Positions 3,122 to 57,622 of a DNA stretch of 64,000 nucleotides are shown in pieces. This DNA is from an uncultured Myxococcales bacterium. Lineage in GTDB: Bacteria; Myxococcota_A; Bradymonadia; UBA7976; VGTA01. A model generated the notes under the pieces. That model ran no database searches. It had not been told where the DNA came from and was given only the letters and a program-made list of their open reading frames with translations. The position numbers and the translations under genes are program-made. The stretch is taken from the NCBI GenBank assembly GCA_937146725.1, contig CAKZRU010000060.1, positions 144,498 to 208,497 of the forward strand. The letters are read 5' to 3'. Each line of letters opens with the position of its first letter. Positions within the stretch are counted from its first letter, which is position 1.

Positions 3122-3670
3122 TTGAGTTCTTTTACATTTCGGAATCGTACGATTGGTCGCTTACACTTAATGATCCTACTGTTAGGCTTTATGAGTTGCA
3201 GTGGTTGTGGGGCTTCAAACCCAAGTCATCCGCTACCAAACTGGGTGATGAACACTCCTTTGGGTTGTGGTTTAGGCAGTTTACAGATGAATGGTAGCTT
3301 ATCTCTTGCCAAATCGGGGGCTATCGCTAAAGGACGAGCGGACTTAGCAAGACAGATTCAAACAAGAATTGAAAATGTCATTAAGACTTATCGAAGCGAG
3401 GGAGGAGGTGCTCAAGACTTTAGTGAAGAATTGATGACCGAGGCCAGTCGACAATCGAGTCGGGCAGTTTTGCAAGGGACTAAGGCCAAGAAAAGTCATA
3501 TCGAGTATGGTGAGATCAATACTTACTATGTTCTTGTATGCTATGAGGCACAGCAAAAAAGTCGACTCATCCAAAGTCTATCCATGATTCCTAAAAAACA
3601 TAGGCAAACGATTCAAGACAGAGCTGAGGCATCCTTTGCTGAACTTGAAAAACTTATGGAAGACTACTAG
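3122..3670 (+). CDS. LPP20-like lipoprotein. Probable true start is the ATG at 3180 (MILLLGFMSCSGC...)
   Basis: Signal peptide with lipobox (LLGFMSC). The body resembles Helicobacter LPP20 family (AIAKGRADLARQIQTRIENV ... NTYYVLVCYE). SD-like aaaggag lies upstream. The stop overlaps the convergent gene by 4 bp. Confidence 0.55.
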   Translation: MSSFTFRNRTIGRLHLMILLLGFMSCSGCGASNPSHPLPNWVMNTPLGCGLGSLQMNGSLSLAKSGAIAKGRADLARQIQTRIENVIKTYRSEGGGAQDFSEELMTEASRQSSRAVLQGTKAKKSHIEYGEINTYYVLVCYEAQQKSRLIQSLSMIPKKHRQTIQDRAEASFAELEKLMEDY

Positions 3671-5166
3671 GTTTCGGCTTTAATTTGATCGATTTGCAGT
3701 GGACGAAGATCTAAAAATCGTAAAGTGAGTCTTTTTTGCATACTCTTGGTGTTTTCGGCTAAGCGTACCAACGCTTTACATTCAATCATTTCTTGGCTTT
3801 GCGGAAGTTTAAACCTAAGCTTGACCTCTTCGCCTTTGAGAAGGCCTTGTTGGCAGATAAGCACAAGTTCTTTGTGATCAAATTGATCGGCATGTCCAAC
3901 AAAGATTTGCTGGGGTGTACTTACATGCACTGAAAATGTTGCGGTTTTTTGAGTGGTTGAATGAAGAATTGAGGCTTCGCTTTGCGCTCTGAGCTTGGCA
4001 TCTTGCTCTTTAAACTTTTTAATGGCTTCTTCATCAAAAACAGCAGTACCTGCTTCGCCGGCGCTCATTGGAAAATCAAAGGGCTCTGAAGCAGAGCCTG
4101 ATATCGCTTCCTCATTGACTGCAGTCGCCTTAGGTTGAGCGTTAAAGTGATCTTCTGCAGATTCATGAGTGATGACAACGTCTACTGAAGCTGAACTATC
4201 TTGAAAGAAACTAGGCTCAAGAGTTGGCAAAGGAGGCAGATCAAAAGGAAGCTCTGCCGAGGATTGTAAGGTTGGAATCAGGTCATCTGGCAGTACTGCA
4301 TCTTCAGCAAAGTTAGGTGTGGTCAAAAACTCGACCTCTCTTTTCAATGCTTCAAGTTCGTCTAGCTCATCTAACTCATTTCGTTTCCCTTTGGGGTTTA
4401 CATCTTCAAAAGGAGAATCGATTTCTAAGGGATCTTGAGTCGCTTCTCTTTTAAACTCTGCAATATCAGGCGTTTGATCGAATTCAAATATCTGGTTGCT
4501 AGAATGATCTTGAGGTGGGGCACTTGGGGGCTCAGGATTGGCAGCTATGGGGGCTTCAGTAATCTTTAAAGGCTGTGGTGTTTGCGGGTTTTGCTCAAGT
4601 CTTGGTCTAGCTTTTTTATTAGAATTTAAGTCCGAAGAGGACTCCTGACTTACAGGACTGGGGGACTTTACAGAAGACTCTAATTCAGATGCATTTGAGT
4701 GCTTTACCGGAAGTGGTTCAGCAGCTTGAGAGCTTGGCTTAGACTGGGGGCTTGTTTCTATTTTTGACTCTTTTACCTCTGATTCGGTAAGTTTCTGATC
4801 TTCAAGAGAAGCTTCTTGGAAGCTGAGTGCTTCGGAATTTGGCGAGGACAGCTCACCGCTTGAGCTCTTGCTTGTCAAACTCGAATCATTTGACATTTCC
4901 GTCTTCTTCTCACGTGCCGAACTCGTTTTTTTACCGCTCTTCATTTGCATTTGTAAGTCGAGAAGTAGCTCTGTAATCTGTCTATGCAAAAGCTTTCTCA
5001 AGGGCTTAATACTATCTATTAAAAGCGTTAAGTCTTCGACTTTTTGTTCATTTGATGAATGTTTACTCTGGGATAAAACTTTGAGCGCATTTGCTTCAAA
5101 GCTTCCTTTTTCGGACTCATATTCGTGTAATGCTTTAATTTTTTTGGTGAGTCTGGTTAAAGACAT
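3667..5166 (-). CDS. hypothetical acidic Ser/Pro/Glu-rich protein with N-terminal coiled-coil and a possible PilZ-like C-terminal domain
   Basis: 499-aa ORF. Long low-complexity middle. The C-terminal ~110 aa (VKLRFKLP...IECKALVRLAE...LTLRFLDLRP) resemble the second half of PilZ c-di-GMP-binding domains. The RxxxR/DxSxxG motifs are not clearly present. Confidence 0.45.
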   Translation of the reverse strand: MSLTRLTKKIKALHEYESEKGSFEANALKVLSQSKHSSNEQKVEDLTLLIDSIKPLRKLLHRQITELLLDLQMQMKSGKKTSSAREKKTEMSNDSSLTSKSSSGELSSPNSEALSFQEASLEDQKLTESEVKESKIETSPQSKPSSQAAEPLPVKHSNASELESSVKSPSPVSQESSSDLNSNKKARPRLEQNPQTPQPLKITEAPIAANPEPPSAPPQDHSSNQIFEFDQTPDIAEFKREATQDPLEIDSPFEDVNPKGKRNELDELDELEALKREVEFLTTPNFAEDAVLPDDLIPTLQSSAELPFDLPPLPTLEPSFFQDSSASVDVVITHESAEDHFNAQPKATAVNEEAISGSASEPFDFPMSAGEAGTAVFDEEAIKKFKEQDAKLRAQSEASILHSTTQKTATFSVHVSTPQQIFVGHADQFDHKELVLICQQGLLKGEEVKLRFKLPQSQEMIECKALVRLAENTKSMQKRLTLRFLDLRPLQIDQIKAET

Positions 5167-5287
5167 GAAGAAATCCTACGATATATATGTGTTTTTTTGT
5201 GGATGCAGATATTCGCAAAAGCGTTACCCAAGTTTTGATGGATAGCCTATTCAATCTCACAAAGTTGTTATTCGTACTGTGCTCACA

Positions 5288-5317
5288 ATACTTGAGAGAA
5301 AAATACTTGAGAGAAAA
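5288..5317. repeat. perfect tandem 15-bp direct repeat (atacttgagagaaaa x2) in the promoter region of the 3667..5166 gene
   Basis: Read directly: atacttgagagaaaa at 5288-5302 and again at 5303-5317, about 120 bp upstream of the minus-strand start at 5166. Confidence 0.6.
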
Positions 5318-5368
5318 AAATCGTGGTTTTATTACGAGGCTCGCCCAGTGTTATCAAATGAGCAATGT

Positions 5369-8300
5369 TTATGGCGTGGGAACTTGTAAAACTTCTAAGA
5401 ATTGTCGTGGCGGCTCAACTTGGTGATCGTATTGATAGTGAGAGAGAATCACTGTTTCCCCAAGACTAAAAGATCGAGCATAAAAACCACTAGCTGCTTG
5501 GTTTTCCCCTAAGCTAGGTCCACGAACCGTGATTCTGAGCCAGCTTCCGGAATCATCTCGTCGGGCGATCAATAATTCATGACCCGTTGCATCTTGATAG
5601 ACAATAAATATCCGACCTCTTTCATCAAAAGCTAAACTACAGTCTTCGCCTACAACATGTAAGGCATGCTCTCGCCCACCAACACCAAGCCTAATTCCAT
5701 CATCTACCCATTCATCTCGTTCAAGTTCCGGAGATAAGTAGCGCAAGGAATCAGTTGCACCATCTTGGTAGCAGTAATGCAGTGCTCCATTTTCATCAAC
5801 CGCCACATTTGCATTGGCCCCAAAGTCGCCACGGCGACTTTCATGACTCCAACCGGCAACTACTTGAGCTGGCGCAAAAACGCTTTCTGTTTTTTGAGCC
5901 ATCATCAAGTTTCCTCCACTACGGTCATACCATACAGCAACAAGTCCACTAGGGCTTTGAACAAGGTGGTTAAAGAGAGCCGTACCCTCTGGATAGCCTA
6001 AGCTCATTAAGTTTTCAGGTGCGGTTACAGTGTGTAATTCTTGAGGTGTGCCCCATGCCATGTTTGTGCTTGGTTGAGCCTCTAAAGCAGTGATAAAGCG
6101 TACCGAGCTAGTAAGCGTAGACTCAGCTTCTTGTTGCTGTAAAGCTCTGTAAACAATACAAGGCCGTCCGAGTTGATCAAGGGTGATATCGGTCCACCAA
6201 CCCGCCCCTTCATCAGTGTTACGATCATCTAGACTTGTGCCAATCGCACCACCACCATCTAGAGTCATAATACTCCATGAATAAACGCCGTCTGCATTTC
6301 TAGTCCCAAGAGCATATTTAAGGCTATTTTGATCAAGATCCATGTAAGCAATATGTAAACTTGCATCTGGGGCAATAGCAATGGAGCTATACTGACCAAC
6401 ATTAGCACCGGCCATACTCACACCACCCCGAGGTCCACTTGGAGCAGCTGTGACGGGTGCATCGCTTGGTACACCATCCACCCATTGCCAAGATATATTA
6501 TTTTCGGCCCCAACCTGCCCTACGACCAGATCACCAAAGTCCTCAACATAAGCACTAAGCCAAATTGTGCCTCGATTGCTGTCATAGGTGAGATCACTAT
6601 GTCGACCAATGGATTTAATCTCCAAAGGATTGGATTCGACACATTCACAAATCTCATTTTCTAACATACAGCTTTGAGGATTAACTTGCCCTCTGGTCGT
6701 TGCACCAAGCTCAAAACCGGCTGGACAGCTCATGGCCTCTGTCAAATCAGCACAGGGAGAGGGAGTTCTTTCACAACTATTTGATTGGTAGCAGCAGTAT
6801 TCGTTTTCGGCACAGCCTTCTGGGCATAAAGGAGCCGAAGGGCATTCGCATTGTGCTGATTCACCACAAATCGCAAACTCATCACCTTCACAGTTCAAGT
6901 CAGAGCACTCGCTGTCTTCAATGCAAGTTACTGTGCTACACGTCCCTTCAAAGCAGATTTGATTTTCGCCACAATTTGCTTGATTACATTCATCAGCATC
7001 ACGCCGAGGCTTAGTTTCATCATCACAAGCGATTAAACTGAGTGTGAATAGGCATAAGAATAAGATGCTAAAAACCCTTCCTAGATGTTTTAAGCGACTT
7101 AATCGCTTAGATATATTTTGTGGCCGTAGGCCTAAGAAAAGTAAAAGTAAACATGCTGAAATAACTAAGGAACTCATCTGCTGAGTACGATCTTGCTTAT
7201 GACTATCACAAGCACAACCGGCGCTAGCATCACTTGGGTCAAGATTGGGGTCAACGCGTCCAATCAGGCCTAAAGGTTGAGTCTCCAGGACTTCTTGCTG
7301 CGGTAAATCATAAAGGGTAACACTGAGTTCAACCGGCTCCGGATCTAGACTAAACTGATCACCTTGAGCTCGAGCTCGTACTTCGATGAGATGAGAACCG
7401 GGAAGCATAAAGGCGGGATCGCGCATAATAAGCTCTTGAGCTTGAGTAAAGGGATGCCAAGCTTGGCCGTTTACACGCCAAGAGAACTCATAGTCCCTAG
7501 TTGGAGTATTTGAGCGCTCTAAAGCTGATAATTCTAGGGTTATAGAAGGATAGTTTGAGTCTTGCTTATTCTGATATCTAGGTCCTTTTTGAATCCAAGA
7601 AGAGATCGGTGGACTAAAGCTTTCTTTAAGTTTAACGAGTGTTTTGACCGGGTGGAAAACTTGCTGACGTAGTGTGCTTGAAGCCTTTAGAGACTCTTGT
7701 TTTAAACTTTGGATTTTGGTTTTAAGTTCCTCACTTAAACTAAGCTTTTGTTGTAGCGCATCACGTTTGCCCTCAGAAGATGAGCCTTCCATTTCGCCAT
7801 CCATCGCTCCATCCATACCTTCAGCCGGAATAACTTGTACAAGATTTGCAAACAGCGCAATAAAGTCTTCTTCACCCTCACTAATGCCAATTATGCTGTC
7901 ATCCTGAGGTGCAAGAGCAAAACCAAAGATCTCAGGTAAAGCAATCGGATCGCTTAAGCTAGATAGAGCCGTTCCAATTAATGGGCCAGTAAGGGTTGGT
8001 AAAAGGGTTGCAATACGACTTGTGTCATCGATAAGAATTTGGTCATTTGCAACCTCAATATCAGTGAGGGCTGCATTCAGATCGCCCAATAATGGAATCA
8101 CGCCTCCGTTAGGATCAAAGGCAACGCCTAATGGCAATACAAGCTTTACCTTTAGGCTAAAAATACGGGTCCAACGATTTTCCATAAACGCATGAAAATC
8201 GAGCCAAAGATCTGGCCAATCAATCGTTAATAAGGGATCCTCAAGCTCTCTTTCCCCATTGGCATCAGCAGGACCTAAACGGTTTTCTCCAATGATGGCT

Positions 8301-9622
8301 TGCGGTGGTCGTTGTGGGGCTAAGGTAATTGCAATGGGCGCCGGACCCCGAGTTAAAGAGGATAAGTTGGGTAAAAGAATACCCAAAGTACCACTGTTGA
8401 GCTGGGCGACCGTAGCACTACTAATACTTAAACAAGCCACACCACTAGTATATACAGCCCATAATGCTTGGTCGATCATCGTTTGGCTAATCGCTAGACC
8501 AACATCAAATTCCTGCCCATTAGGACTGAGAGTATTTTCAAGTGCACTGGCTCGAGGCGGTTCTTCGATATTGGGTGGCAAGGCAGGTGGAACACAGCGA
8601 TTAAGTTCAGCGCCGGTACCGGTGATTACACCCAAAGATAAGCCTTCATTAATCACCTCGGCATAGCTACCAGGGTTGAGAAAATAACTCATGGGGGCCT
8701 CTAAGTTGGGGGTGACCGAACTGAGTAACTCACCTAGGTCACTTTCACCCTCTACCCCAAGTGGCCTAGTCACACAGCTGAGGTCTTCACGAATACAGCT
8801 TCCCAAAAAGCAGGAGCCACCCTGTGACAAGCAAACAGGATCTTCATCTGTCTCACACTGCAAGCATATAAAGTCGTTGATAACACCCTGCAAAGCCACA
8901 ATCAGAACATTGTCTACCACATCACCAAGCAGACCTAAGACCAAGTCTCTGATAAAGGGTAGGTTGAAGCCACCATCCAGAATTTCACACAGAGGACTTA
9001 AGAAACCATCATTGCCTTCAAGTCGAATACTAATATCGGTGAGTTCATATACCGCATCGCTGACTAAAACACCCAAGTTGCGCTGTGGCTCAGGGGTAGT
9101 GAGGATAATATCAACATTTACAGGGACATCAGGGCCATCAATCGCAATGTCACAATCAACAATAGGATCGGCACCAACATCGAAGCGAAGGGCGAGTTGA
9201 TCAAGTAAAACACTCGCTCTCACCTTGTTCGGTTCCTCGGCATTTAAGGTGACTTCACCAACGCTAATGTTGATATCACAGCCGGTTTCACCATTGGTAC
9301 AGGTTTCCATATTACAATAGCGCCAATTAATAAAAGCAGCACTGCCTGAATCACCTGGTAAGCACGAGTTTAACTCGGGGGGTAGTGCCTCTTTAATAAT
9401 GGGAGTAACCGTTTGTCCGATAGTATCAAAACCACTTTCGGTGACTCTGACTTGGATCGCACTTTGAATCTTGTCTTTATTGGGAAAACTTGGGCCATTA
9501 CCGGCGCAACCACTCATGCCATCACAAGCGGTACTGAATAAGCCAAAGCTAAAAATAAGCCAAGTACTTACTTTCAGAAAGCGATTTGCTTTGGTGAAAG
9601 CATATAGATTTGTGTTTTTCAT
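5369..9622 (-). CDS. 1417-aa secreted/lipoprotein ORF. N-terminal lipoprotein domain (~790 aa), internal MYXO-CTERM-like segment plus second lipobox, then Cys-rich EGF-like region and beta-propeller-like repeats
   Basis: N-terminal signal peptide with lipobox LFSTAC. Internal GCAC-TM(LVISACLLLLFLGL)-basic stretch is followed directly by a canonical lipoprotein signal (KRLSRLKHLGRVFSILFLCLFTLSLIAC|DDE). The C-terminal half has a Cys-rich module and 6-7 repeats of the type IAxAPDxSLHIAYxDxDxxSLKY. Confidence 0.7.
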   Translation of the reverse strand: MKNTNLYAFTKANRFLKVSTWLIFSFGLFSTACDGMSGCAGNGPSFPNKDKIQSAIQVRVTESGFDTIGQTVTPIIKEALPPELNSCLPGDSGSAAFINWRYCNMETCTNGETGCDINISVGEVTLNAEEPNKVRASVLLDQLALRFDVGADPIVDCDIAIDGPDVPVNVDIILTTPEPQRNLGVLVSDAVYELTDISIRLEGNDGFLSPLCEILDGGFNLPFIRDLVLGLLGDVVDNVLIVALQGVINDFICLQCETDEDPVCLSQGGSCFLGSCIREDLSCVTRPLGVEGESDLGELLSSVTPNLEAPMSYFLNPGSYAEVINEGLSLGVITGTGAELNRCVPPALPPNIEEPPRASALENTLSPNGQEFDVGLAISQTMIDQALWAVYTSGVACLSISSATVAQLNSGTLGILLPNLSSLTRGPAPIAITLAPQRPPQAIIGENRLGPADANGERELEDPLLTIDWPDLWLDFHAFMENRWTRIFSLKVKLVLPLGVAFDPNGGVIPLLGDLNAALTDIEVANDQILIDDTSRIATLLPTLTGPLIGTALSSLSDPIALPEIFGFALAPQDDSIIGISEGEEDFIALFANLVQVIPAEGMDGAMDGEMEGSSSEGKRDALQQKLSLSEELKTKIQSLKQESLKASSTLRQQVFHPVKTLVKLKESFSPPISSWIQKGPRYQNKQDSNYPSITLELSALERSNTPTRDYEFSWRVNGQAWHPFTQAQELIMRDPAFMLPGSHLIEVRARAQGDQFSLDPEPVELSVTLYDLPQQEVLETQPLGLIGRVDPNLDPSDASAGCACDSHKQDRTQQMSSLVISACLLLLFLGLRPQNISKRLSRLKHLGRVFSILFLCLFTLSLIACDDETKPRRDADECNQANCGENQICFEGTCSTVTCIEDSECSDLNCEGDEFAICGESAQCECPSAPLCPEGCAENEYCCYQSNSCERTPSPCADLTEAMSCPAGFELGATTRGQVNPQSCMLENEICECVESNPLEIKSIGRHSDLTYDSNRGTIWLSAYVEDFGDLVVGQVGAENNISWQWVDGVPSDAPVTAAPSGPRGGVSMAGANVGQYSSIAIAPDASLHIAYMDLDQNSLKYALGTRNADGVYSWSIMTLDGGGAIGTSLDDRNTDEGAGWWTDITLDQLGRPCIVYRALQQQEAESTLTSSVRFITALEAQPSTNMAWGTPQELHTVTAPENLMSLGYPEGTALFNHLVQSPSGLVAVWYDRSGGNLMMAQKTESVFAPAQVVAGWSHESRRGDFGANANVAVDENGALHYCYQDGATDSLRYLSPELERDEWVDDGIRLGVGGREHALHVVGEDCSLAFDERGRIFIVYQDATGHELLIARRDDSGSWLRITVRGPSLGENQAASGFYARSFSLGETVILSHYQYDHQVEPPRQFLEVLQVPTP

Positions 9623-9790: not shown

Positions 9791-10732
9791 ATGGCCAAGG
9801 ATTTATATAGTATTTTAGGGGTAAGTAAGGATGCAAGTGATAAAGATATTAAGCGTGCTTACCGAAAAATAGCTCAAGAAAATCATCCCGATAAAAATCC
9901 AGATAATCCCAAAGCAGAAGAACGATTTAAAGAGGCAGCCGCCGCCTTTGATGTACTCAAAGATTCAGAAAAAAGATCACTGTATGATGAGTTCGGACCG
10001 GATGGTCTAAGAGAGGGCTTTAATGCAGATGCCGCGCGTCGTTACGGAACATCTGCCGGTTTTGGTGGGGGCTTTGGTGGAGGCTTTGGTGGGGGCTTTG
10101 ACGATATCCTCAGAGATATTTTTGGCGGTGGTGGTGGTTTTGGTGGTGGTGGTTTTGGTGGCGGTGGTTTTGGTGGTAGTGGCTTTCAGCAAGCGCCACG
10201 TCGCGGGGCAAACATTGATGTCACCCTAAGGGTTTCATTGGCCGAAGCAGTCAATGGCTGTCAAAAAAAGCTTCATGGCTATGGTGTAGATGTTAAAGTT
10301 CCGGCGGGTGTTGCTAGTGGCCAAAAATTGCGCCTTAAAGGAAAGGGGCATCAAGGGCCGGGCGGGGCAGGACACTTAAATGTATTTATTGAGGTCAATG
10401 TTCCCAAAGAAGCTGAACTAGAAAATGAAGAGTTAGGGCATCTTAGCGTGGCGATTCCAATTACTTTACAGCAGGCCGTTCAGGGGGGGAAAGTGAGTGT
10501 TGAGCTGCCAGAAGGCGGTCAGATTAAACTCAACTTACCGGCTCAGCTCAGCTTGCCTAAAAAAATAAGAATTCCTCATCGAGGGATGACCATTAAGGGT
10601 GATCGGGGCCATTTATATGTGAAGCCTTATATTATTGCGCCACCCCTGCCGGAAAATGAGGAAAGAGCTCAAGCCCTTAATGAGCTTTTGGAAAAACTCG
10701 AGACCTTTTATGTCTCGAATACAGATCTCTAA
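9791..10732 (+). CDS. DnaJ (J-domain) co-chaperone, CbpA-like: J-domain + Gly/Phe-rich linker + DnaJ C-terminal domains, no zinc finger
   Basis: DLYSILGVSKDASDKDIKRAYRKIAQENHPDKN is a J-domain with HPD. A long GGFGG repeat linker spans nt ~10040-10200. There is no CxxCxGxG zinc-finger module. An RBS (gggggaag) precedes the ATG at 9791. The track ORF begins earlier, at 9743. Confidence 0.8.
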   Translation: MAKDLYSILGVSKDASDKDIKRAYRKIAQENHPDKNPDNPKAEERFKEAAAAFDVLKDSEKRSLYDEFGPDGLREGFNADAARRYGTSAGFGGGFGGGFGGGFDDILRDIFGGGGGFGGGGFGGGGFGGSGFQQAPRRGANIDVTLRVSLAEAVNGCQKKLHGYGVDVKVPAGVASGQKLRLKGKGHQGPGGAGHLNVFIEVNVPKEAELENEELGHLSVAIPITLQQAVQGGKVSVELPEGGQIKLNLPAQLSLPKKIRIPHRGMTIKGDRGHLYVKPYIIAPPLPENEERAQALNELLEKLETFYVSNTDL

Positions 10733-10747
10733 AAACTAAGACCGGAC

Positions 10748-12022
10748 TTAAAAATAATGCTTAACTGCCTCTAACTCGACCCAAGGCAATAAACTCACCT
10801 CAACCTGTTGACCTGCTGTGTATTGACAAGGTTGATCAGGCATATAAAGCAAGCCATCAGCTTGAGCAATGCTACTAATCCATGCCGATGATTGCCCACC
10901 GGTGAGTTCACAGCCATAAAAAGATTTCCCGGTATCTTCTTGCGTCATTCGATTTAGACGTACTCTAAATAGCTCTGCCCGGTGATGCGTTTTGCGTAAA
11001 TCATGCTGCAATATGCAGTTGATGCGTCTTAAGCCACATTGTTCTTCTGGAACACCAGCCATCTTTTGCAGTAAGGGATGAACAAAGAGTAGATAGGAAA
11101 CAACGCAAGAGACCGGGTTGCCAGGTAAACCGATGAGTAAGCACTTGGCCCCTGCACGACTCTGAATACTTGCCACAGAAAAAGGTTTTCCTGGCTTCAT
11201 CTTAACCTTCCAGAAATGCCGTTGGGCTCCGAGTACTTCGAGAGCCTCATGGATGGGATCAAAGTCACCCACACTGACCCCACCAGTCGTTAGAATCACT
11301 TGCACATCACTTTCTAAAGCACGCTGAATGGTATCAACAACTGTTTGAACTGAGTCTTTGGCCCTAAAAACAGAGTTTAATTGTGCAGATGAAGTCTTAA
11401 CTAAGGGTGCTAAGGTTAAGGCATTGGTTGCATAAATCTCGGCACCATCTAGTGCTTGCCCAGGTGATTTAAGCTCTGTTCCGGTTTCGATAATAGAGAC
11501 CTTTGCTTGCGTAATCACCGGAAGAGTGTCCCAACCTTGAGCAGCGCATAAACCAAGTACACCAGGCGTTATTTTAGTGCCTTTTTGAGCGACAAGATCA
11601 CCAACTGCTAGTTCTTCACCAGCCTTACGGATATGTTCTCCGAGTTTGGCTGTTTGTTGGATTAAAACCTCTTGTTGATCAGCGCTTGTTTGACAGTTTT
11701 CTTGGATAACCACAGCATCAGCACCGGTTGGCAGAGGTGCTCCGGTAAAAATACGAGCTGCTTCACCCTTAACTAAAGACCTTTGAGGCCAATGACCAGC
11801 AGGGATAAGCTCGCCCACTTGAAGAGTTTGACCGGCTTGAGCTTCCGCATAGCGAACAGCATAACCATCCATCGCCGATTGGGGCCAACGAGGTAAAGGG
11901 GATTCAGCATACAAATCAGTAGCTAAGTAGGCACCATTGCACTGATCAAGAGGCCAAGATTCGGCTAGATTTGCTGTTACTAGTTGTAGACAGTCACGGA
12001 TCGCATCATTTAAGGGTCTCAT
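10748..12022 (-). CDS. moeA: molybdopterin molybdenumtransferase MoeA
   Basis: 424 aa with MoeA N-domain, MPT-binding core (LTTGGVSVGDFD) and C-terminal domain. Confidence 0.85.
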   Translation of the reverse strand: MRPLNDAIRDCLQLVTANLAESWPLDQCNGAYLATDLYAESPLPRWPQSAMDGYAVRYAEAQAGQTLQVGELIPAGHWPQRSLVKGEAARIFTGAPLPTGADAVVIQENCQTSADQQEVLIQQTAKLGEHIRKAGEELAVGDLVAQKGTKITPGVLGLCAAQGWDTLPVITQAKVSIIETGTELKSPGQALDGAEIYATNALTLAPLVKTSSAQLNSVFRAKDSVQTVVDTIQRALESDVQVILTTGGVSVGDFDPIHEALEVLGAQRHFWKVKMKPGKPFSVASIQSRAGAKCLLIGLPGNPVSCVVSYLLFVHPLLQKMAGVPEEQCGLRRINCILQHDLRKTHHRAELFRVRLNRMTQEDTGKSFYGCELTGGQSSAWISSIAQADGLLYMPDQPCQYTAGQQVEVSLLPWVELEAVKHYF

Positions 12023-12050
12023 GTTGACTTATCCCATGTACTAGATGTCT

Positions 12051-12851
12051 TTAGAACTCATAGTCCCAAGCTTGATCTTCGGCGTTTGCTTGGAATTGTT
12101 CACGCTTGGCAGTCGCAGCTTTTGCAACATTCTTCAGTTTACGAAGTTCATCAGCACTTAAGTCGCGCCATTGACCAGCACGTAATTTTGGAGTGAGTTC
12201 AAGATTTGCAAAGCGAATACGACGCAGGCGTTGTACTGAGTGCCCTACTTGATCCATCATTCTACGAATTAGACGATTTCTACCCTCGGTGACTGTCATT
12301 TCCAACCAAGTGTTCTTGGGACTTACATGATGTCCGGGCGTCACAATAAAGACTTCACTCACTTTGGCAGGACCATCTTCAAGTAAAACACCCATTTGTA
12401 AAGCCTCTAAGGTTTCCAATTTTGGGTTACCATTCACTTTAACTTGGTAGGTTTTTGGTGTTTCTCCTGATGGATGAATGAGTGCATTGGTTAAATCACC
12501 ATCATTGGTCAGTAACATTAAACCTTCGGTATCAAAGTCAAGGCGACCTACGGGGACTACTCTTTCGGAGATTTCGCCAAGATGATCAAGAATGGTAGGT
12601 CGGCCACGATCATCGGAAAGCGTTGAAACGCAATGTAGAGGTTTGTGAAACATGATGTAGCGACGAGGTTCTTTCATCAATTTCTTTCCATTGACCTCAA
12701 TTCGATCCTTGGTAGGATCGGCTTTTGAACCAAGCTCTTTAACGACTTCGCCGTTGACCTTAACCAAACCTTGTTGAACAAGTTTCTCTGCTTGGCGTCG
12801 TGAACATAAGCCTGCTTGGGCAATAATCTTTTGTAATCTATCTTTAGCCAT
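12051..12851 (-). CDS. rluB: 23S rRNA pseudouridine synthase, RluB/RsuA family, with Lys/Ala-rich C-terminal tail
   Basis: N-terminal S4 domain (RLQKIIAQAGLCSRRQAEKLV). Catalytic motif VGRLDFDTEGLMLLTNDGDL. Confidence 0.85.
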   Translation of the reverse strand: MAKDRLQKIIAQAGLCSRRQAEKLVQQGLVKVNGEVVKELGSKADPTKDRIEVNGKKLMKEPRRYIMFHKPLHCVSTLSDDRGRPTILDHLGEISERVVPVGRLDFDTEGLMLLTNDGDLTNALIHPSGETPKTYQVKVNGNPKLETLEALQMGVLLEDGPAKVSEVFIVTPGHHVSPKNTWLEMTVTEGRNRLIRRMMDQVGHSVQRLRRIRFANLELTPKLRAGQWRDLSADELRKLKNVAKAATAKREQFQANAEDQAWDYEF

Positions 12852-12960
12852 GTTGTTGGCTCCTTTCTGAGCGCCTCTCGGCGGTCAAAAAGGCTCATCT
12901 CACAGCTTAAGGGCAAGGTCAAGTTTAAATCAGCGACTTTAGGTCATTCATTGAGCTTCT

Positions 12961-13809
12961 TTATGAAGTCTTTAAGTATTCTTTAAGGTATTGACTTGAT
13001 TTAAACAGATATTCAGCTGAGGGCAAATAGGTTAAATGCCGAATATTTTGTGCGCTTAAATCAATACTTCGCTGTTTAATACTTGCCGCTACAGACGGTG
13101 GCCCAATTAAACCAAGGGCTTGTTTTTGTGGATTTGAGTTCATCAAACTAGCCAATAAAGTGATTATATCAAGCATATGTCCACTGGGTCTTGCACCCTG
13201 CCCAAGCGGATAGATGAGCTTTAGAACTAGATCGGCTTGACTATACATGATTTCGGGTAGATATTTTTGACGACTTAACCTTTCCCAATCCAAATCTTTA
13301 AGACTAATCGCCGGTGCCCATGCACTGAGTTTGTAATCAAGAGAGTGACCTTGTTGGGCTTGTTCATGCATGGTTTTTAAAGCCAAACGAGCCCCTAAAG
13401 AATGTCCTATTACTTGCACTTCCCCCAGATTGCAACGCTCAGCAATCAACTCATGAAGAGCTTGTATTTGAGCATCGCATTCTGTGCGGGCTTGAGTCCA
13501 AGCATCATGAATATCGCCAGCACTCTTCATTAACTGAGACTTCACAAAGTCTAAAGATAGATTTCGGGCTTGCTTGAGAATCGGTCCTAAGGTTTCCCAT
13601 AAAAGCTCTATAGCCGATTGACTCGCCCACTGAAAAGTGAGGACTTCCACATCATCATGAGTTAAATGCTGAAAAGCAAGCTCCCAAGCTCGACGGTCGA
13701 GAGCTGCGCTAGGATCAAGCTTGTTAAAAGCAGAGCTTTGATCTTGACGAGCTAGGGTATGAGGTTCAGTTAAAAAGCCAGGAATCACAATTAAACTTTT
13801 GTGCGACAT
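12961..13809 (-). CDS. alpha/beta-hydrolase-fold protein (lipase/esterase-like, GHSLG nucleophile elbow)
   Basis: VQVIGHSLGARLAL serine-hydrolase pentapeptide. Fold typical of lipase/PGAP1-like hydrolases. No signal peptide. Confidence 0.55.
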   Translation of the reverse strand: MSHKSLIVIPGFLTEPHTLARQDQSSAFNKLDPSAALDRRAWELAFQHLTHDDVEVLTFQWASQSAIELLWETLGPILKQARNLSLDFVKSQLMKSAGDIHDAWTQARTECDAQIQALHELIAERCNLGEVQVIGHSLGARLALKTMHEQAQQGHSLDYKLSAWAPAISLKDLDWERLSRQKYLPEIMYSQADLVLKLIYPLGQGARPSGHMLDIITLLASLMNSNPQKQALGLIGPPSVAASIKQRSIDLSAQNIRHLTYLPSAEYLFKSSQYLKEYLKTS

Positions 13810-13950
13810 TGATTCTCCTTTTACAAACTTATTTAACTAACTTATAACCCCTTTTTTTAATTTAAAGCAAAGCACTTTATGATCTGACCGCCTGTCTATT
13901 TTGTCACGAATATTGATATAGACAAGCTTAAACTTACTGCTTTGATTAAA

Positions 13951-16900
13951 TTAGACGAGTTCTCTACGTCTAATGGTCATCAAGGCAAGGCATAGGAATA
14001 ATAACCATGGTGTCTTGGTACCACTTTGAGTTTCACAGCCATCATCCGGCTCAGGTTGAGCTTCGGGGAGTGGCTCACTACATACAGATTCAAGACAGAT
14101 GAGGTTATCTGGGCAACCGGTGACTTCCAAAGAAGCATCACAAGCAATGATATTTAAGTCACTATTTGCGGGTGTTTCACCTGGGTCAAGTCGACCATTT
14201 TGGTTAGCATCTTCTTCACCGTCTTCAAGTCCATCACCATCACTATCAACACTGAGTGGATTCGTCGTTGTCACCGGATCAGCATCACCGACAAAGTCAG
14301 AAGAAGTGTCATTAAGTGTTGCTCTTTCGACACCCGATTCAACACCATCACTGATGCCATCGCCATCACTATCAAAATCAAGAGCATTGATGAGGCCATC
14401 ACCATCAGTGTCAGTATCCCAACCTTCTTCAGCGCCATCAGCAATACCATCATCATCACAGTCAGCATCATTGATATCCAAGCCAACATTAACTTCTTGA
14501 GCATTGGTCAAGCCATCGGCATCAGGATCAAGTTCCGCATCATTTGGATCTTGAGGATCAAGCATAGCAACAACTTCTCTTGTATCGTCAATACCATCTT
14601 CATCAAAATCTCTTGGAATGATGATATCAGCGGTGCCTTGAAGAACATCTCCTTCAGTTGTGGTAATGGTCGCTACAATACCAGCAAAATAGCGTCCTGG
14701 GTTCATGCCAACAGCAAGTCGACCAGAGCCGTCTGTATCCGGAATGATCTGACCAATCTCCATTGGGTTTAAGGACCATTCTACCATCGCATTTTCAATT
14801 TCAACACCTTCAGTGTCATATACGGTTGCTCTAAAGCGTTCGACAGCATCAACTGTGGTCCGCAGAGTGTTAGGCTCAATTTCGATACGAGCCGGTGCAC
14901 TGTTCACTACGGTTACATCAGTTTGGCCAAAAACACCCTCGCTTACACGGGCAACGATAGCATTTGGATAATAACCAACCCGATCGGTTGCGGTAAAGAT
15001 ACCTGACTCAGTAATGTTACCAGCCATGGCAAGAGGAGCATCAAAAACAGCTTCTATATTATTGATCGCATTTCCATATTGGTCACTGATACTTGCAGAG
15101 AAACTGATGATTTGGTTAGGGATAAGCTCCGGATTAGCAGGAGTGATCATAACCGAACTTGGTGCATCAGGCACTAGATAGAGATCAACAAAAGTGCTTT
15201 GTCCCTCATAGCTGACTTTGATTTCACTGAGGAAAGTGCCTGTGGTTGTTTCGGCTCTAAACTCACCTTGGTCATCAATTGTACCCGCAGGTCCAGTTAA
15301 CACAGGATTGTCAGTAGAGCCATGGTTGCCTTCTGCATCTCTAACCTGCCATACAGCATCACTTGGCATCCAAGTATTGCCATATTCGTCGCTTGCCTCA
15401 ACTTCAAAGATTTGGCGCTGACCAACGGTTACGGAGACTTCGTCTGGAGTCACATTAAGGCGGACAGCAGGGCCAGGAGTGATGGTTACAGTTGCATCAG
15501 CTACAAAATTGCCAACTTGAGCTCTTACGGTCACTTCTTCGGTGACGGTGCCGGCACGGAAACGACCATTAGGATTGATTGAACCTTGTCCCTCAAACAC
15601 AGTGTAAACCGGTACATCATTTGTTTTGAAGCCACAGTCATCAAGGCCTTCTGCACTAAAGATAAAGTCATCATCAACTTCAACATCAGCGCGATTTGGA
15701 CTGATTTGTACAGTGGCGACTTCGCCAGCACGTACATCTACGTTTGCTGTGCTAGATAGCTCAAAACCAGTACCAGTAGCGGTTTCTACAGTAATCTCAT
15801 CGGGATAGAAATTCGGTAACACAGCACAGTCAGCCGAGATCACTCCATCAGAAGTGATCGAGAAGGATGAGGAAGCAACTCTCCCCCAATTAACGGCTAC
15901 TTCAGCATTGCTCACATTTCCTTGTGCATCAGTGAAGTAGGCAGTGAGTTGTTGGCTTGAGCCTGGGTTCATAATAATCGTGGAAGGCTCGATGTGAATA
16001 CTTACTGGTTCACCAGCTTGAACTTCAACAGTAATAAAGCGCTCAACACCTAAGTGACGAATTCTGATCGCATTGGGGTAAACTCCAGCAATTAAACCAG
16101 CAGTAAAGACACCAGCATTGGTTACCGCAAAGTTTTCTACCGAAGTTGACCAAGTTAAAGGTACATTAACTTCATTATCAAAAGCATCAAGAGCAACCGC
16201 ATCAAGGTCAATCACTTGGCCTGGTGTAACAACAATACGTTCTTCAACTTCTGTCTGCTCATTTTGAGAAGGACGTGTCACTTGAATATGGGTGACAGGT
16301 CCAGGAATAATACTGAGCTCAAGGAAGCTTGTTAAACCATTGGCATTGACTTGAATACGGCCGGTTCCGGTCATCTGTAAAGCTCTCACCAGACCGGTAG
16401 GACTGACTGTAAATAGCCCGTCGCCTTCTGCCACTGCATAGACAACATTTGTAGGCTCAATCATGTTATCATTGGCATCAAAGACCATCAGAGCAACTTG
16501 CTGTTCTTGCTGTGGAATAAGCTCAAGGCTTGCTGGGGTAAGAACAAGTCTTGTTGCTGCGCTCGGTGTTACAACAACATTTACCCGCTGCTCAATACCA
16601 CCACCAGAGGCAAGGATTGACTGAGTGTAAGTACCTGCAGTACCAAAGGCTGTGAAAAGTCCAGTTGAGGTGATTTGTCCGCCACCTGCTTCAACTGACC
16701 AGTTAATTGGTGTGTTTGTTACACTGTTACCAAATTGGTCAACTGGACTCGCTGTAAGCTGAATGCTACCGTTTGCAGTTACGGTGACTGGAGTGGGTTG
16801 AACGTTAAGTGCAGCAACTGCACCAGCAGTAATCTCTACATCAATCGCTAATTCAGCACTGCCAACACGGGCAATTAAGCCATCAGTGAAAGTACCAACA

Positions 16901-19900
16901 ACCTGTCCGGCTGTGAATTGATCTTCATCATCAATACTGCCAGCATCTGGACTTACGGTCCAGTTAACCTCAGGCATAAAGTCATTACCAAACTCATCAA
17001 AGGCAGTCACCTCAAGGTTAATCACACTACCAGCTGCGACCACAAATGGATCAGGTGTGACTTCTAGAACAGAAGCGGCAGCTGGGGTAACCACAAGGTC
17101 AGCACTTGCTTGCACACCGCCCAATTCAGCGATAACGGCTCCAAAGTAAGTGCGAGCAGATTCGCTGGCGGTGAGTAAGCCTGTGGGTGTGAGTGAACCA
17201 CCCTCAGTACTGCGCCAAGTGGGTTCTTGTTCAATCAGGTTGTTACATCCATCATAAAGTTGTGCGGTTAATTGTCTTTGTGCACCGGCTTGGATACTGA
17301 CTGGGCTTGGATTGATTTCAATGCGTTGTAAAACACCATCGGTAACCTCAAGATCGATTTGACCTACTTGTGTACCTGCTTGGGCAAATACAGCTGCAGG
17401 GTAGAAGCCACGTACACAGCCCGCTGTTAAGAGGCCTGTGTCTGCCCCGATTGAACCACTCGAGGTACTCCAACGAATTGCATCTTGTCGAGGATTACCA
17501 CAAGCATCAAAAGCATTGGCTTGTAGTTGTTGTTCGTTACCGGCAGGTAAGCTAATACTTGCCTGGGGTAAGGTCAAAGTCGCCACTTCACCAGGAAGAA
17601 CAGAGATACTTGAGAAAGCTGTAAATTGACGATTAAATTCATCTGTATAAACAGCACTTAAACCTGCAACACTGGTTCCTTCAGTAGAACAACCGACCGT
17701 TAGTCTTTGTCCATTTGAAGGTAGTCCTGCACCAGATACACTAGCATTTGTAATAGGTGTTGACCAAAGAGGCTCGACAGTCTTTAAACGACCACATTCA
17801 TCAACACCAACCGTTTCAAATACCTGTGATGAGCCCATACGAACTTGAGCGCTGTTAGGTTGAATTGAAAGTTCACGAAGTGGTGCACCGGTAACGGTCA
17901 CATTTGCTGAGCTTTGTAGATTTTCAGCGCTGACTACGATCGCACTATTAAACGCACCAAGATTACAACCTGCGGTGAAGATACCGGTTTGATCAATTGC
18001 GCCTGCTGTACCATTGGTACTAAATACGGGATTACTCGCTGGTCTAGTAAAGCCACAAGCATCGGTGACGGTGACACTGAAGTTCTCTGAGGTTGTCGCT
18101 GGAATATTGAGAGATGATGGAGAAATATCAAGCTGGGTCACAATGGCTCCACCTTGATCAACAATAAGGTCAGAGCTACGACTGACTGAACCAAAAGTAG
18201 CGGTTACGGCATTGTTGTATGTACCAGGAGCACAGCCCGCTGTCACTCTACCGGTGACTGGATCAATGGTTGAGCCACCAGCAGCTGAAATACTCCAAGT
18301 CACATCTACATCTGGAATCACGTTGTTGAAAGCATCTTTAACCACCGCACTATATAATACAGTTCTTGTGGTTGAAACCGATTGAGTTGCTTTGCTGATG
18401 ACAATTTCAGCGGGCACATTTGGAGTAATCTTAATATCGGTTACCCCACTGACATTGCCGGCAGTGATTCTTAATGAGCCAATATAATCACCAGCAACAG
18501 AGTTAGCGGTAAACATACCACCGGCAGTCACACTCCCACCACCATTGATGACTTCGTAAGTAAAGGGTTGATCATATTTGAAAACAAAACCAAAGGCATC
18601 ACGTGCACCGGCTCTGATTTGTAAGCTATCTTCAGCGGCTACGGTGAATGGATTATCAAAGGAACCGAGTTCCGCTACTTGGCAGTAATTTTCACGAACT
18701 GGACAAGTCCAGTCATTAAAGTAACAGGCAGGAACGCCATTACACTCTCCTGGCGCACCATTGCGCTCGTCAGGAGCAACACAGCCACATCCTAAGTCAA
18801 CATCTAGACTGGTGGTTAGATTGCCAAACTGTGCATGAAGTGCGCTATTGTATAAGCCTGGTGTTGCTGAAGGACGGAACTGATCGGTTTCTTCATTAAA
18901 GATACCTACAGTTTCATCAATGGTCCAAACGGCGGGAGCTACTGGGAAGACATTACTATCTCGACGACCCCATAAGGTTAATTCCACTTCACGACCGGTT
19001 GCAAAACTTGTTGAGTTGGCAAGAGCACCATCAACATACATAAAGATTTCTTCAGGGCCAAATTCAAAGGCACCGATATCACAGCCAGAGTTCCCATCAA
19101 AATCACCATCAAAAGGACGGGGAATACCATCGATGTCAACCTTGAGGCCACCCATGCTTTGAGGTGCATTTGGGGCTAGGTCACAGCGACCTAAGTCAAT
19201 CAGAGGAGAACCACTGTCTAGTCTGAAAATTGGGTCAGCTGCAGGGAAATCGGCAACAAAGCTTGGGCTTACACTAATTGAATTAGCATCTGGAGAGAAT
19301 CCACTATAAAGGTTGGGGTAATCAAAAACATTGTTATTATTGGTCACCAATGGAGCAGAGTTGATGCGCTCTATCGCAATGCCGGTACCTCGTACCACAT
19401 TGTTATTATTAAGACGTGTAGTACTCGCATTAACAGTACCCTCAAGTGAAATACCGATCACATTTTCTACCAAAGTATTATTGGCAATAATATTATCAAG
19501 ACCAGAAGCAACAGTGCTATCAGGAAGTGAACGAATACCGTATCCACTCATCTTAGTGATCAGGTTATTAGCGATTTCTGCGCTACCTCTAGTGAGCACA
19601 CCTTGAGCACCGCCAGAGACCTGATTCCCGTAAATAACAGTATGTTCTGCTTCAACCTGTACACCGCCACCAGCACTCGTTCCATCTGGTTTGGTAAACT
19701 CATTAATCGTATTGGCACTAATTTCTACTTGATCTCGGCTTGCAATACTTACTGAACCTTGGAAACTATTCGCATGGATTAAACCTTGTCGATAAAGAGC
19801 CACTGTTGTTTTATCAGAAACTTGAGAATGACTAAGGTTCAATGTACCAACATTAACAATAATAGAGCCCGATACATTGATTTGATCAAAGTTTAGGGTA

Positions 19901-48619: not shown

Positions 48620-49912
48620 TTAAGGGTCTGCTTCGTATTTCTTATAATATATGATTACAGCTGCACTGTATATGGCAAGAAAGCTCCATTCAATCATTCG
48701 ACGCCCTCCTCTAAAAATGAGGGTAATACTTTGAAAAATAAGCAAGCTTTGTAGGGTAATGATATACGCGCGATCTTTTAGATGAATGATACGATCAAGT
48801 CTAAATAGGTTCTTTGTTTGTTGTAAAATAAATACATACAGCATGAGCACAGTGGGAATCCCCAAAGTGGCAAGTTCTCCCATATAGTAGTTATGCGAGG
48901 CGCGATCATGTCCATGATCGATCTGTATAAAGTCTTCAAGTAATCTAAATTGGGCAAAGCCAAAGCCAAAAAAGGGATACTCATATATTGTTCTAAGGGC
49001 ATTTTGTAAAATCGCTTGGCGGTCATGAACCGAAGCATCTTCAAGTTGCCATCTTAAAAAGAAATACTCAAGGCGATCAGGGTGCAGAATGATGATCAAG
49101 CCAAAAACCAAACCTAATAAAATAGCTCCGATGATAATTTCACGTTTTCTGTGTCTAAATGACCAAAGCAGGGCAATGGTAAAAGCGACTTGTGCGCCTC
49201 GAGATACGGTTAAAATAAGACCAAAAAGAACCAAGCCTCCTAAAATGGAAAACATAAGTCTGATCCAGCGCTTAAAATGTGGGACTGAGTTCATGGACAA
49301 AGCAATTAAGGCTCCGGGACCGATTAAGCCTGCAAAACTATTTGGTTGCCCAACTAAACCCACAAAGCGTCTTGAGTCTCCATCTAGGTAAAAGCCGACC
49401 AATACATGGACAACACATGAAAAAAGAATCATCCATAAAAATAAATGGAGTTGCCTTTCAGTACGAATGAGATCAACCAGCATAAAAAAGCCGGCAATAT
49501 AAAGACATTGTCGTACATAAAGGCCGGTGACTGTTTCTGGAGCTGGCCCCTGTAACCAACTTAAACCTACGCCAATCAAGTATAAGATAAGAAAGGGCCA
49601 AGCTTTTGGAATCTGTAAGGATACAGAGCGATTAAAGCGCCAAGTTGGCCAATAGGCCAATAGTAAAGCGAGTGCAAAGTCACCATATCCAATTTTAGCA
49701 AACCCCAAGGGCACAAAGAGATCATCAAAGTGGATGCAAATTGTGAAGATGACCAACCAAAGCGAACTTAAGTGGGTGATCAAGAATGAACTTACGATCA
49801 CAACAGCTAACATAAGAATGGGTAAGGGAGAGCCGGTTGACAGCCAACCCACAGCAATACTCATTAACAGGGCAAAGCCAATGATAAACATAGATGTGAG
49901 TCTACTATTCAC
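48620..49912 (-). CDS. O-antigen-ligase-like (Wzy_C/WaaL/PglL family) polytopic membrane protein
   Basis: About 10 predicted TM helices. Conserved TVSRGAQ loop motif and the WaaL-type ASHNYYMGELATLG histidine motif. 4-bp overlap with the upstream lipoprotein gene. Confidence 0.7.
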   Translation of the reverse strand: MNSRLTSMFIIGFALLMSIAVGWLSTGSPLPILMLAVVIVSSFLITHLSSLWLVIFTICIHFDDLFVPLGFAKIGYGDFALALLLAYWPTWRFNRSVSLQIPKAWPFLILYLIGVGLSWLQGPAPETVTGLYVRQCLYIAGFFMLVDLIRTERQLHLFLWMILFSCVVHVLVGFYLDGDSRRFVGLVGQPNSFAGLIGPGALIALSMNSVPHFKRWIRLMFSILGGLVLFGLILTVSRGAQVAFTIALLWSFRHRKREIIIGAILLGLVFGLIIILHPDRLEYFFLRWQLEDASVHDRQAILQNALRTIYEYPFFGFGFAQFRLLEDFIQIDHGHDRASHNYYMGELATLGIPTVLMLYVFILQQTKNLFRLDRIIHLKDRAYIITLQSLLIFQSITLIFRGGRRMIEWSFLAIYSAAVIIYYKKYEADP

Positions 49913-50505
49913 TCCGCCTCACATTGATCTTCAGCCAAGCCATTAATTGCCTCAAGTAGTATTGGCCTTCGCGTATCATCAGGCGCTTCAAGACACCAAG
50001 TAAAGCCTTGAAGACGTTCACCGCCATTGACCTGCTCAAGATTAAAAATCCGCTTACACTCCTGAGTGAGTTGTGGACATTTTTGATTTGTATTCGAGGG
50101 AGAAGACATCATTGCTGTATCAAGACTCATGTCACCAATATCTTGTGGAGTGTACAAAGAAAAGGTGAGGCCATTAGCAACAAAGAGTAGTTCTCGATCA
50201 TCAGAATCATTAAGCTCTTCGATCAATCCCTGCACGATAAAGGAACAGTTACAACGATCAGCTGGGTCAAAAAGGGCCAAAGAACCCTCGCTTGGCCGCT
50301 GATATCTTACACTGACCCCAGCGACTCGATCACCATATTGTCCAAGGTTGAGTTCATATAACTCGGGGGCTAAAATAGAGTTTTCTTGCGTCTCTGTTGA
50401 TTCCTCATTAATCTCTCTCCATACACCACTCACAGAAGCACTTCTTTGGCAGGCGCTAAGCAGGATAATTAGGATAAAAAGTAGAAGAGAGAGCGGCTTT
50501 GACAT
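49909..50505 (-). CDS. small hypothetical lipoprotein (198 aa)
   Basis: Signal peptide with lipobox ILLSACQRS. Translationally coupled to the Wzy_C gene (overlap 49909-49912). Confidence 0.5.
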   Translation of the reverse strand: MSKPLSLLLFILIILLSACQRSASVSGVWREINEESTETQENSILAPELYELNLGQYGDRVAGVSVRYQRPSEGSLALFDPADRCNCSFIVQGLIEELNDSDDRELLFVANGLTFSLYTPQDIGDMSLDTAMMSSPSNTNQKCPQLTQECKRIFNLEQVNGGERLQGFTWCLEAPDDTRRPILLEAINGLAEDQCEAE

Positions 50506-50544
50506 TGAGTGAGTCAGATTTAAGCTTTAGATGACTTGGGATGC

Positions 50545-52098: not shown

Positions 52099-52134
52099 AG
52101 TAATTGAAAGCGATATAAAGATAAATGAGATATA

Positions 52135-57562: not shown

Positions 57563-57622
57563 GAGCGATCCCTCGATTATTTTAAAAGTTCAAATAAAGT
57601 GAGTAGCAGTCACAAGTTAAGG

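Follow-up and report, generated by a model that had tools for sequence, protein, structure and literature searches.

A single minus-strand open reading frame (ORF; 5369..9622, 1417 amino acids) in a 64,000-nucleotide stretch of DNA from an uncultured Myxococcales bacterium (contig CAKZRU010000060.1; the whole stretch is called the window here) contains in its interior a MYXO-CTERM-like sorting tail that is followed directly by a lipoprotein signal, without a stop codon across the junction. This cassette of Cys motif, helix, basic loop, hydrophobic h-region and lipobox [GAS]-C is kept in 128/128 long homologues (at least 1150 residues), which come from metagenome-assembled genomes (MAGs) of Myxococcota, Bradymonadia and Haliangiales and are down to ~24% identical. 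In three loci (L011, L018 and L029), each nested among fused relatives, the gene is instead split exactly in the basic loop, and there the upstream gene ends in a terminal MYXO-CTERM tail and the downstream gene begins with a lipoprotein signal peptide. It appears rather likely that the protein is an envelope polyprotein that would give rise to two lipoproteins once LspA and a myxosortase have cut out a transmembrane hairpin. The proposal builds on the observed anatomy of the gene, its conservation, the family-level membership in TIGR03901, a lipobox that conforms to the known rule, the predicted folds and the equivalence of split and fused loci.

Anatomy of the precursor gene

All features of this gene lie on the minus strand. 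The stop codon is at 5369-5371, and an identical protein (P0001) is present in the public collection. The N-terminus (9524..9622, residues 1-33) is a lipoprotein-type signal peptide, MKNTNLYAFTKANRFLKVSTWLIFSFGLFSTAC followed by DG, which in the window ends in LFSTAC33; the family consensus is L-x-A-C followed by G-x-x-S-G-C-x-G-C, and C33 is nearly invariant. Directly behind this lipobox Cys stands a second conserved Cys-rich motif (C-G-x-x-S-G-C-x-G-C, 9500-9526, C33...C39, alignment A1), which resembles the GGCGC of the internal tail. The two-barrel domain of the N-terminal half (N-half) occupies approximately residues 52-596 (7835..9469), and an FN3/Ig-like beta-sandwich, recognized by model secondary structure and FN3 matches, approximately residues 659-770 (7313..7648).

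A disordered linker leads from there to the cassette, whose translation reads ...SAGCACDSHKQDRTQQMSSLVISACLLLLFLGLRPQNISKRLSRLKHLGRVFSILFLCLFTLSLIAC followed by DDETK.... Residues 800-868 have the order SAGCAC-DSHKQDRTQQ-MSSLVISACLLLLFLGL-RPQNISKRLSRLKHLGR-VFSILFLCLFTLSLIAC-DD. The internal MYXO-CTERM-like Cys motif with its spacer (SAGCACDSHKQDRTQQ, residues 800-815, 7178..7225) includes G802-C803-A804-C805 (7208-7219); it is followed by a first hydrophobic helix of 17 uncharged residues (MSSLVISACLLLLFLGL, residues 816-832, 7127..7177), i.e. a stop-transfer or MYXO-CTERM helix, and by a putatively cytoplasmic basic loop of 17 residues with six positive and no negative charges (RPQNISKRLSRLKHLGR, residues 833-849, 7076..7126). 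The internal lipoprotein h-region with the lipobox LIAC (VFSILFLCLFTLSLIAC, residues 850-866, 7025..7075) comes next, with the predicted LspA cut between A865 and C866. The lipobox Cys (residue 866, 7025-7027) is followed by 551 residues, the C-terminal half (C-half), which comprise a Cys-rich module with ~20 conserved Cys (approximately residues 877-995, 6638..6994) and a lectin-like seven-bladed beta-propeller (approximately residues 1004-1415, 5378..6613).

An earlier note on this DNA had placed a sorting-tail-like signal and, behind it, a lipoprotein signal with the lipobox LIAC at 7025-7230 in one uninterrupted ORF; all of this can be read directly in the translation at these coordinates, and LIAC matches the core of PROSITE PS51257. 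It had also likened the internal tail to that of a neighbouring 2550-aa adhesin. That C-terminal MYXO-CTERM-like tail is real (13954..14046, minus strand, DDGCETQSGTKTPWLLFLCLALMTIRRRELV before the stop codon), but it ends in RRRELV and not, as the note had it, in RRR.

Separate translation of the C-half from an internal start is ruled out. M816, which precedes the first helix, is the sole in-frame ATG, GTG or TTG codon within residues 800-870, leaving no in-frame start from helix 1 to the lipobox; the C-half therefore does not arise from initiation downstream of helix 1.

Properties of the two internal signals

Signal statistics were taken from an alignment of 42 junctions, while motif and model counts refer to 112 junction segments. 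All 42 junctions have the lipobox Cys, with Gly (26), Ala (13) or Ser (3) at position -1, and the h-region has the length of a signal peptide (median 15 residues, range 12-23). A positively charged n-region (KRLSRLKHLGR) is found immediately upstream of the h-region in the window. The PS51257 core pattern fits the window junction and 98/112 junctions, 96 of which, treated as virtual precursors, also satisfy the charge and position rules; the other 14 deviate from the core, for example by a Pro at -2. The N-terminal position of a lipoprotein signal (Cys within residues 15-35) is found in the split orthologues and in standalone C-halves, whereas the Cys of the window protein is residue 866. Position +2 after the internal lipobox Cys is Asp or Glu in 32/42 and position +3 is Asp in 37/42 junctions, while the N-terminal lipobox has Gly at +2. 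An Asp at +2 serves in E. coli as the signal for retention in the inner membrane; the literature search yielded no +2 sorting rule for myxobacteria.

In the first helix, uncharged residues follow one another over a median of 16 positions. A net positive charge of the loop is seen in 42/42 junctions (+2 to +9, never more than one acidic residue; median length 6, range 3-38). In most relatives the loop is merely RRRR(R), so that these few residues provide both the sorting tail with its basic cluster and the signal peptide with its n-region. Both helices are conserved in composition only and their sequences drift freely, as would be typical of cleavable signals.

The features of a MYXO-CTERM tail (TIGR03901) were compared one by one. 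The Cys motif is GCAC in the window, with G802, C803 and C805 at least 90% conserved (44 sequences) and one Cys invariant in the 112 junctions; a helix (MSSLVISACLLLLFLGL) follows after the spacer; and the same protein carries an N-terminal signal peptide (lipoprotein-type, C33). The cluster of two to five Arg residues behind the helix is mostly RRRR(R) in the relatives and reads R-P-Q-N-I-S-K-R... in the window, with one Arg at the helix end and a charge of +6 over 17 residues. The location at the extreme C-terminus is seen in the split loci L011, L018 and L029 but not in the window. At E<=0.01, 74/112 internal segments match TIGR03901, and internal tails such as those of P0012 (32 bits), P0042 (28.2), P0017 (26.1) and P0038 (22.7) exceed its cut-off of 20 bits.

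Conservation of the fused gene

A search of 5.8 billion proteins yielded 44 clusters, nearly all of 1340-1520 amino acids, which cover the whole query with identities down to 28%; besides P0001, these are 43 further full-length homologues, and the junction alignment has the same cassette in every complete sequence. When the C-half alone was compared by HMMER with 1.84 billion representatives, 2158 relatives were obtained (117 at E<=1e-30), most of which are 1250-1780 residues long and begin to match at residue ~800-1030. Across assemblies of ENA, JGI, NCBI and Logan, the number of independent clusters with the fused ORF is 44 plus ~90, and three independent assemblies yielded the identical fused protein. 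Among 17 genome loci (MAGs of Myxococcota, Bradymonadia, Nannocystaceae and Haliangiales), a single frame of at least 1,300 residues is open through the junction in 14; of the remaining three, L007 reads through the junction and stops early in the C-half, L005 is cut by the end of the locus, and L011 is split. One locus (L002) has two paralogues of the family, 2.5 kb apart and 24% identical (3469-7380 and 9947-14086, both on the plus strand), and both have the cassette.

The early stop in L007 (9827-13153, plus strand; P0037) leaves a product of 1079-1109 amino acids, while the similarity runs on to 14058, and this gene is a probable frameshift or pseudogene.

A strict cassette pattern applied to 480 open frames of at least 300 amino acids in 492 kb (the window plus related DNA) returned family members and one spurious match in a wrong frame, and the occurrence of the cassette is far beyond chance. 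A weak and short profile of the cassette (A4), run against the 5.8 billion proteins for unrelated families, gave three insignificant matches, two of them ordinary proteins with a terminal MYXO-CTERM. No cultured or named family member was found, all being "hypothetical proteins" of MAGs, which also applies to the source of an 8.02-Mb contig. An operon partner was not found either, conserved gene neighbours being shared with the closest relative (L001) only.

Split loci and free-standing C-terminal halves

The split and fused orthologues, a comparison that the earlier note had recommended, show a clear predominance of the fused form. In L011 (on a 1.13-Mb contig), the upstream product ends in ...GGCGGCSAGHGSTPNVPLWALGGLLFIVGLRRRRRGEDQ (...GLRRRRRGEDQ before the stop codon), and after a gap of 20 nt the downstream gene begins with ATG-MSKTRLALLAALAALAFGC followed by DDNAN...; the terminal tail scores 35.7 bits on TIGR03901. 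In L018, the upstream end ...SSCGCVLGAPATSGALPLCALLIALVAVRRRARGGVA (...AVRRRARGGVA before the stop codon) overlaps by 4 nt with a downstream gene beginning with MMGPIRRRFLVAALIALPSLFQAC followed by DCG.... The overlap is 8 nt in L029, where ...PAGCGCHLGERHSGGGAGAAAMVLGLLALAVRRGRRGPRG (...AVRRGRRGPRG before the stop codon) is joined by GTG-ASRAREAALGVLLLLGAAGC followed by QHD...; the upstream gene of this locus encodes an 874-aa lipoprotein that is 24% identical to the N-half of the window protein over 778 residues.

The C-halves of the split loci are just 30-33% identical to one another, and the nearest relative of each is fused: L011 is 82-84% identical to the ORF of L013, L029 43-50% to P0146, and L018 ~41% to P0182 and P0044. 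To judge from these sequence relationships, the fused state is ancestral and dominant, and because the split C-halves are so dissimilar and each is closest to fused proteins, the pattern indicates at least three independent fissions, all of them inside the loop. In addition, free-standing lipoproteins resembling the C-half (P0131, P0105, P0127, P0164 and P0183) occur in unrelated gene contexts. Since three split versions and these standalone lipoproteins exist, the architecture is that of a MYXO-CTERM protein joined to a lipoprotein.

Some incomplete sequences stand beside these cases. P0094/L027 and P0121/L028 begin at contig edges and have ambiguous short matches; the second of them, P0121, probably represents part of a gene of the fused type. 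P0220 (112 amino acids, on a 626-bp contig) is an N-half fragment ending in ...GLIRGRANPSADAGCACRAAAPSDLAGALPLLAVLALLRRRRGRRS, which could be a fourth split locus or merely the end of a contig.

Predicted folds of the two halves

The AlphaFold2 model of the N-half (mc86d7f1a8ceb) has a mean predicted local distance difference test (pLDDT) score of 81, with the last ~18 residues below 50. In a Foldseek search of the PDB, it matched human BPI (1bp1, E 8e-16, template modelling score normalized to the target 0.64 over 579 columns), LBP (4m4d) and CETP (2obd), with E values for BPI, LBP and CETP from 8e-16 to ~1e-13/7e-13, and more weakly botulinum OrfX/P47. It aligns structurally with the entire boomerang, both barrels included, of BPI, LBP and CETP, and each of its barrels has the long helix wrapped by a twisted beta-sheet that characterizes TULIP domains; the domain behind it matched FN3 structures (1x5a, 1lwr). 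The N-half is thus predicted to be a BPI/LBP/CETP-like two-barrel TULIP lipoprotein with an FN3-like domain. It differs from BPI, LBP and CETP in being bacterial and putatively lipid-anchored, in the extra FN3-like domain and in having no detectable sequence similarity to them: no Pfam match at E<=10, and therefore no sequence membership in LBP_BPI_CETP, was obtained for the N-half, and searches of Pfam and NCBIfam with the whole protein and with each half gave no matches.

The model of the C-half (m81375073a4fc) has a mean pLDDT of 92.4, with residues 1-11 below 50; these form a disordered tether (CDDETKPRRDA) that starts at Cys866 and leads to the Cys-rich module and the propeller. The closest Foldseek matches of the propeller in the PDB were the Photorhabdus PLL/PHL lectins (E~6e-12), and sialidase-like propellers were found as well. 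Disordered linkers thus lie beside both predicted cut sites in the models. The fold of the N-half suggests that the Myxococcota and Bradymonadia, a largely predatory group, possess a large family of BPI-like lipoproteins that has so far gone unannotated.

Proposed processing and alternative explanations

In the proposed pathway, the N-terminal lipoprotein signal would direct the growing protein to Sec for translocation of the BPI-like N-half, which would be lipidated at Cys33. The first internal helix together with the Arg/Lys-rich loop would then halt translocation in the manner of a MYXO-CTERM tail, leaving the loop in the cytoplasm, and the second hydrophobic segment, using the shared basic loop as its n-region, would insert with its N-terminus inside and its C-terminus outside and thereby restart export of the C-half. 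Lgt would modify Cys866 and LspA would cut in front of it, making the Cys-rich/propeller half an ordinary N-terminally acylated lipoprotein. The C803/C805 motif would be lipidated and the myxosortase MrtX, which cleaves MYXO-CTERM in Myxococcus xanthus and in E. coli (PMC11980579), would cut behind it, so that the N-half would be lipid-anchored at both ends. The excised hairpin (~60 amino acids here, ~35-40 in most relatives) would be discarded, and the net outcome would be two lipoproteins in 1:1 stoichiometry at one membrane site.

A more specific version can be formulated, to which we give about even credence: the junction may be the first natural bacterial internal LspA/Lgt site, part of a modular, excisable "sorting hairpin" for envelope polyproteins of Myxococcota, in which MYXO-CTERM and the lipoprotein signal have one Arg cluster in common. 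It would yield, from a single translation product, a doubly lipid-anchored BPI-like lipid-binding protein and a lectin-like propeller lipoprotein 1:1, probably in one surface complex. Fission and fusion in the loop would then be selectively near-neutral, because processing makes both states equivalent.

Several points weigh against the excision pathway. Every family member is a "hypothetical protein" of a MAG, and the processing has been deduced from genes rather than seen at the protein level. The action of LspA and Lgt on a signal that is not N-terminal is an assumption, and no natural internal LspA site or internal lipobox was found in the searchable literature. The 64 kb of the window hold no candidate for MrtX/CPBP, Lgt or LspA. 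An indel of 1 nt in the assembly might in principle account for any one of the split loci; this appears unlikely because there are three independent cases with the start codon in place and Met is rare in the loop (13/112 fused loops). Finally, the internal tail of the window has no match to TIGR03901, and the basic residues of its cluster are spaced out by others (RPQNISKR...). The neighbouring adhesin, whose terminal tail is bona fide, likewise lacks a match, which argues that TIGR03901 under-detects tails in this low-GC lineage. A published tail, that of TraA, ends in "...FLRPRRPAR" (PMC11980579), and the "GLRPQN" of the window resembles it.

It should be noted that excision of the hairpin is not the only outcome that such an anatomy would allow. 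The signals might be used partially, with one of them employed or both employed conditionally: LspA alone might cut, the N-half being kept in the inner membrane by the helix or hairpin, or the myxosortase alone might cut, the C-half remaining on an uncleaved signal-anchor. The divergence of the internal tail in the lineage of the window, the 14 lipoboxes outside the PROSITE core and the finding that the surface-localisation defect of the mrtX mutant is not absolute (PMC11980579) are consistent with this possibility. However, both Cys positions are essentially invariant across ~128 clusters, the split orthologues hold both signals in functional terminal positions, and the failure of TIGR03901 is compositional, since the adhesin's terminal tail was missed as well, so that partial processing appears unlikely. 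Still less probable, in our estimate, is an uncleaved hairpin by which one mature protein with two periplasmic lobes would be held in the inner membrane, the Cys residues serving for disulfides, palmitoylation or the like. A helical hairpin would have the same out-in-out topology and positive loop, and cleavage in the excision pathway is itself a deduction. Yet an uncleaved hairpin would not explain why helix 2 closes exactly with [GAS]-Cys in all 42 junctions, or why a GC/CxC motif stands 10-15 residues ahead of helix 1; the hydrophobic cores of the family are short (median 15-16) and vary freely in sequence; the C-half module exists elsewhere as a free lipoprotein; and three lineages have cut the gene in the loop and kept both halves, one of them (L011) at 82-84% identity to a fused sister, which would be unexpected for a single functional polypeptide.

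An artefact, i.e. a missed stop codon or frameshift or a recent pseudo-fusion in this contig alone, has nothing in its favour except that the architecture is odd a priori, and it has a negligible probability in view of the independent clusters with the fused ORF, the 14 loci that are open through the junction and the identical protein from three assemblies. The earlier note had considered an assembly error, to be recognized by orthologues that uniformly carry a stop codon at the junction; the reverse was found, the long homologues keeping the cassette without exception, and for practical purposes this error is rejected. The same note had left the choice between an in-frame fusion of two secreted proteins and an internal processing site. 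Both descriptions fit, but a fusion by accident does not, since the state is old, dominant and universally conserved among the long homologues, and the processing site is a candidate that the logic of the sequence strongly supports.

Relation to known systems

Internal sorting signals of the C-terminal type are already known and are rare, contrary to the initial impression that precedents were lacking. In M. xanthus, internal MYXO-CTERM motifs have been called "rare" and MXAN_5598 "atypical"; it combines an adhesin, an internal tail and an outer-membrane (OM) barrel/OmpA part, and its authors regard it as a fusion of two genes whose N-terminal part is proposed to be processed and surface-anchored (mBio 2025; PMC11980579). 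It shares with the present family the mid-protein MYXO-CTERM tripartite signal with an exported domain on either side. In contrast, it is a single gene whose C-terminal OM beta-barrel and OmpA domain have no homology to the family of the window, and its description reports neither a lipobox or second signal nor family-wide conservation nor a comparison of split and fused forms. A second case is HVO_0405 of Haloferax volcanii, an ArtA substrate with a central PGF tripartite signal, which is cut into N- and C-terminal parts in dependence on ArtA and lipidation (PMC7157517). It demonstrates in vivo that a C-terminal-type sorting signal can work internally; the system differs in being archaeal, in using the PGF-CTERM/archaeosortase pair, in being a strain-specific fusion and in having no lipoprotein signal peptide behind the tail. 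What stands of the claimed lack of precedent is the direct coupling of a tail to an internal lipobox: neither this coupling nor its conservation over at least 128 clusters nor repeated fission in the loop was found described in the literature searched.

The halves of the cassette correspond element by element to the canonical signals of the MYXO-CTERM/MrtX pathway and of Sec/signal peptidase II (Lgt-LspA-Lnt), and in the split loci they are terminal, as in those pathways. The difference is that in the present family the two signals adjoin each other within a single chain and have one basic cluster in common, with neither of them terminal. The closest functional analogy appears to be with viral glycoprotein polyproteins (bunyavirus Gn/Gc, pestiviruses and flaviviruses; PMC7926653), in which a stop-transfer helix, a loop and an internal signal are likewise combined and the precursor is cut at the lumenal end of the signal into two membrane-associated ectodomains in a 1:1 ratio. 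These viral systems differ in operating in the eukaryotic endoplasmic reticulum with signal peptidase and signal peptide peptidase, without lipid attachment, and there is no evolutionary relation.

Two curated families offer leads only. The NCBIfam model NF058595 ("lipo-invert putative C-terminal anchoring domain", invert_tail) matches 24/112 junctions over helix, loop, helix and Cys (model positions ~19-76), all of them below the cut-off of 37 bits, the best among the matches listed having 22 bits. It may represent a related hairpin-with-lipobox device at C-termini; a publication on "lipo-invert" was not found in the literature search. The family NF033207 ("midcut-by-XrtH protein") appears, by its name alone, to be a curated one with a mid-protein exosortase signal.

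If both signals of the cassette are used, bacteria would have a polyprotein route to the envelope that is similar to that of viral glycoprotein precursors but operates with lipidation-coupled proteases. Lgt and LspA would be active on a natural signal that is not N-terminal, and MrtX on a tail that is not terminal. As a natural reporter for the activities of myxosortase and LspA, the precursor (155 kDa, to be converted into ~80 and 60 kDa) would be ideal, and it could help to identify the enzyme responsible for lipidating the Cys of MYXO-CTERM. There would also be consequences for genome annotation, in which each such precursor now counts as one protein, either "hypothetical" or "MYXO-CTERM domain-containing", and a large unannotated bacterial BPI/LBP-like family would be revealed in a largely predatory phylum.

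Neighbouring genes of the window

The 2550-aa adhesin-like protein (13951-21603, minus strand), which ends in the tail DDGCETQSGTKTPWLLFLCLALMTIRRRELV, has hints of Big_1/Big_2 domains and a choice-of-anchor Q domain, and one of its regions resembles CglD, a lipoprotein of gliding motility (NF033765; E 3e-16, a score far under the cut-off). Farther along, at 49909-59800 on the minus strand, large ORFs of 198, 1072, 681 and 725 amino acids have lipoprotein-type N-termini with the lipoboxes LLSAC and, each followed by D, FSFAC, LTAC and LTGC; this region may be a surface-lipoprotein gene cluster. An ORF of 981 amino acids (23269-26214, plus strand) ends in ...CWCGSGKKYKRCH, which we take to resemble the C-terminal zinc-binding motif of SecA.

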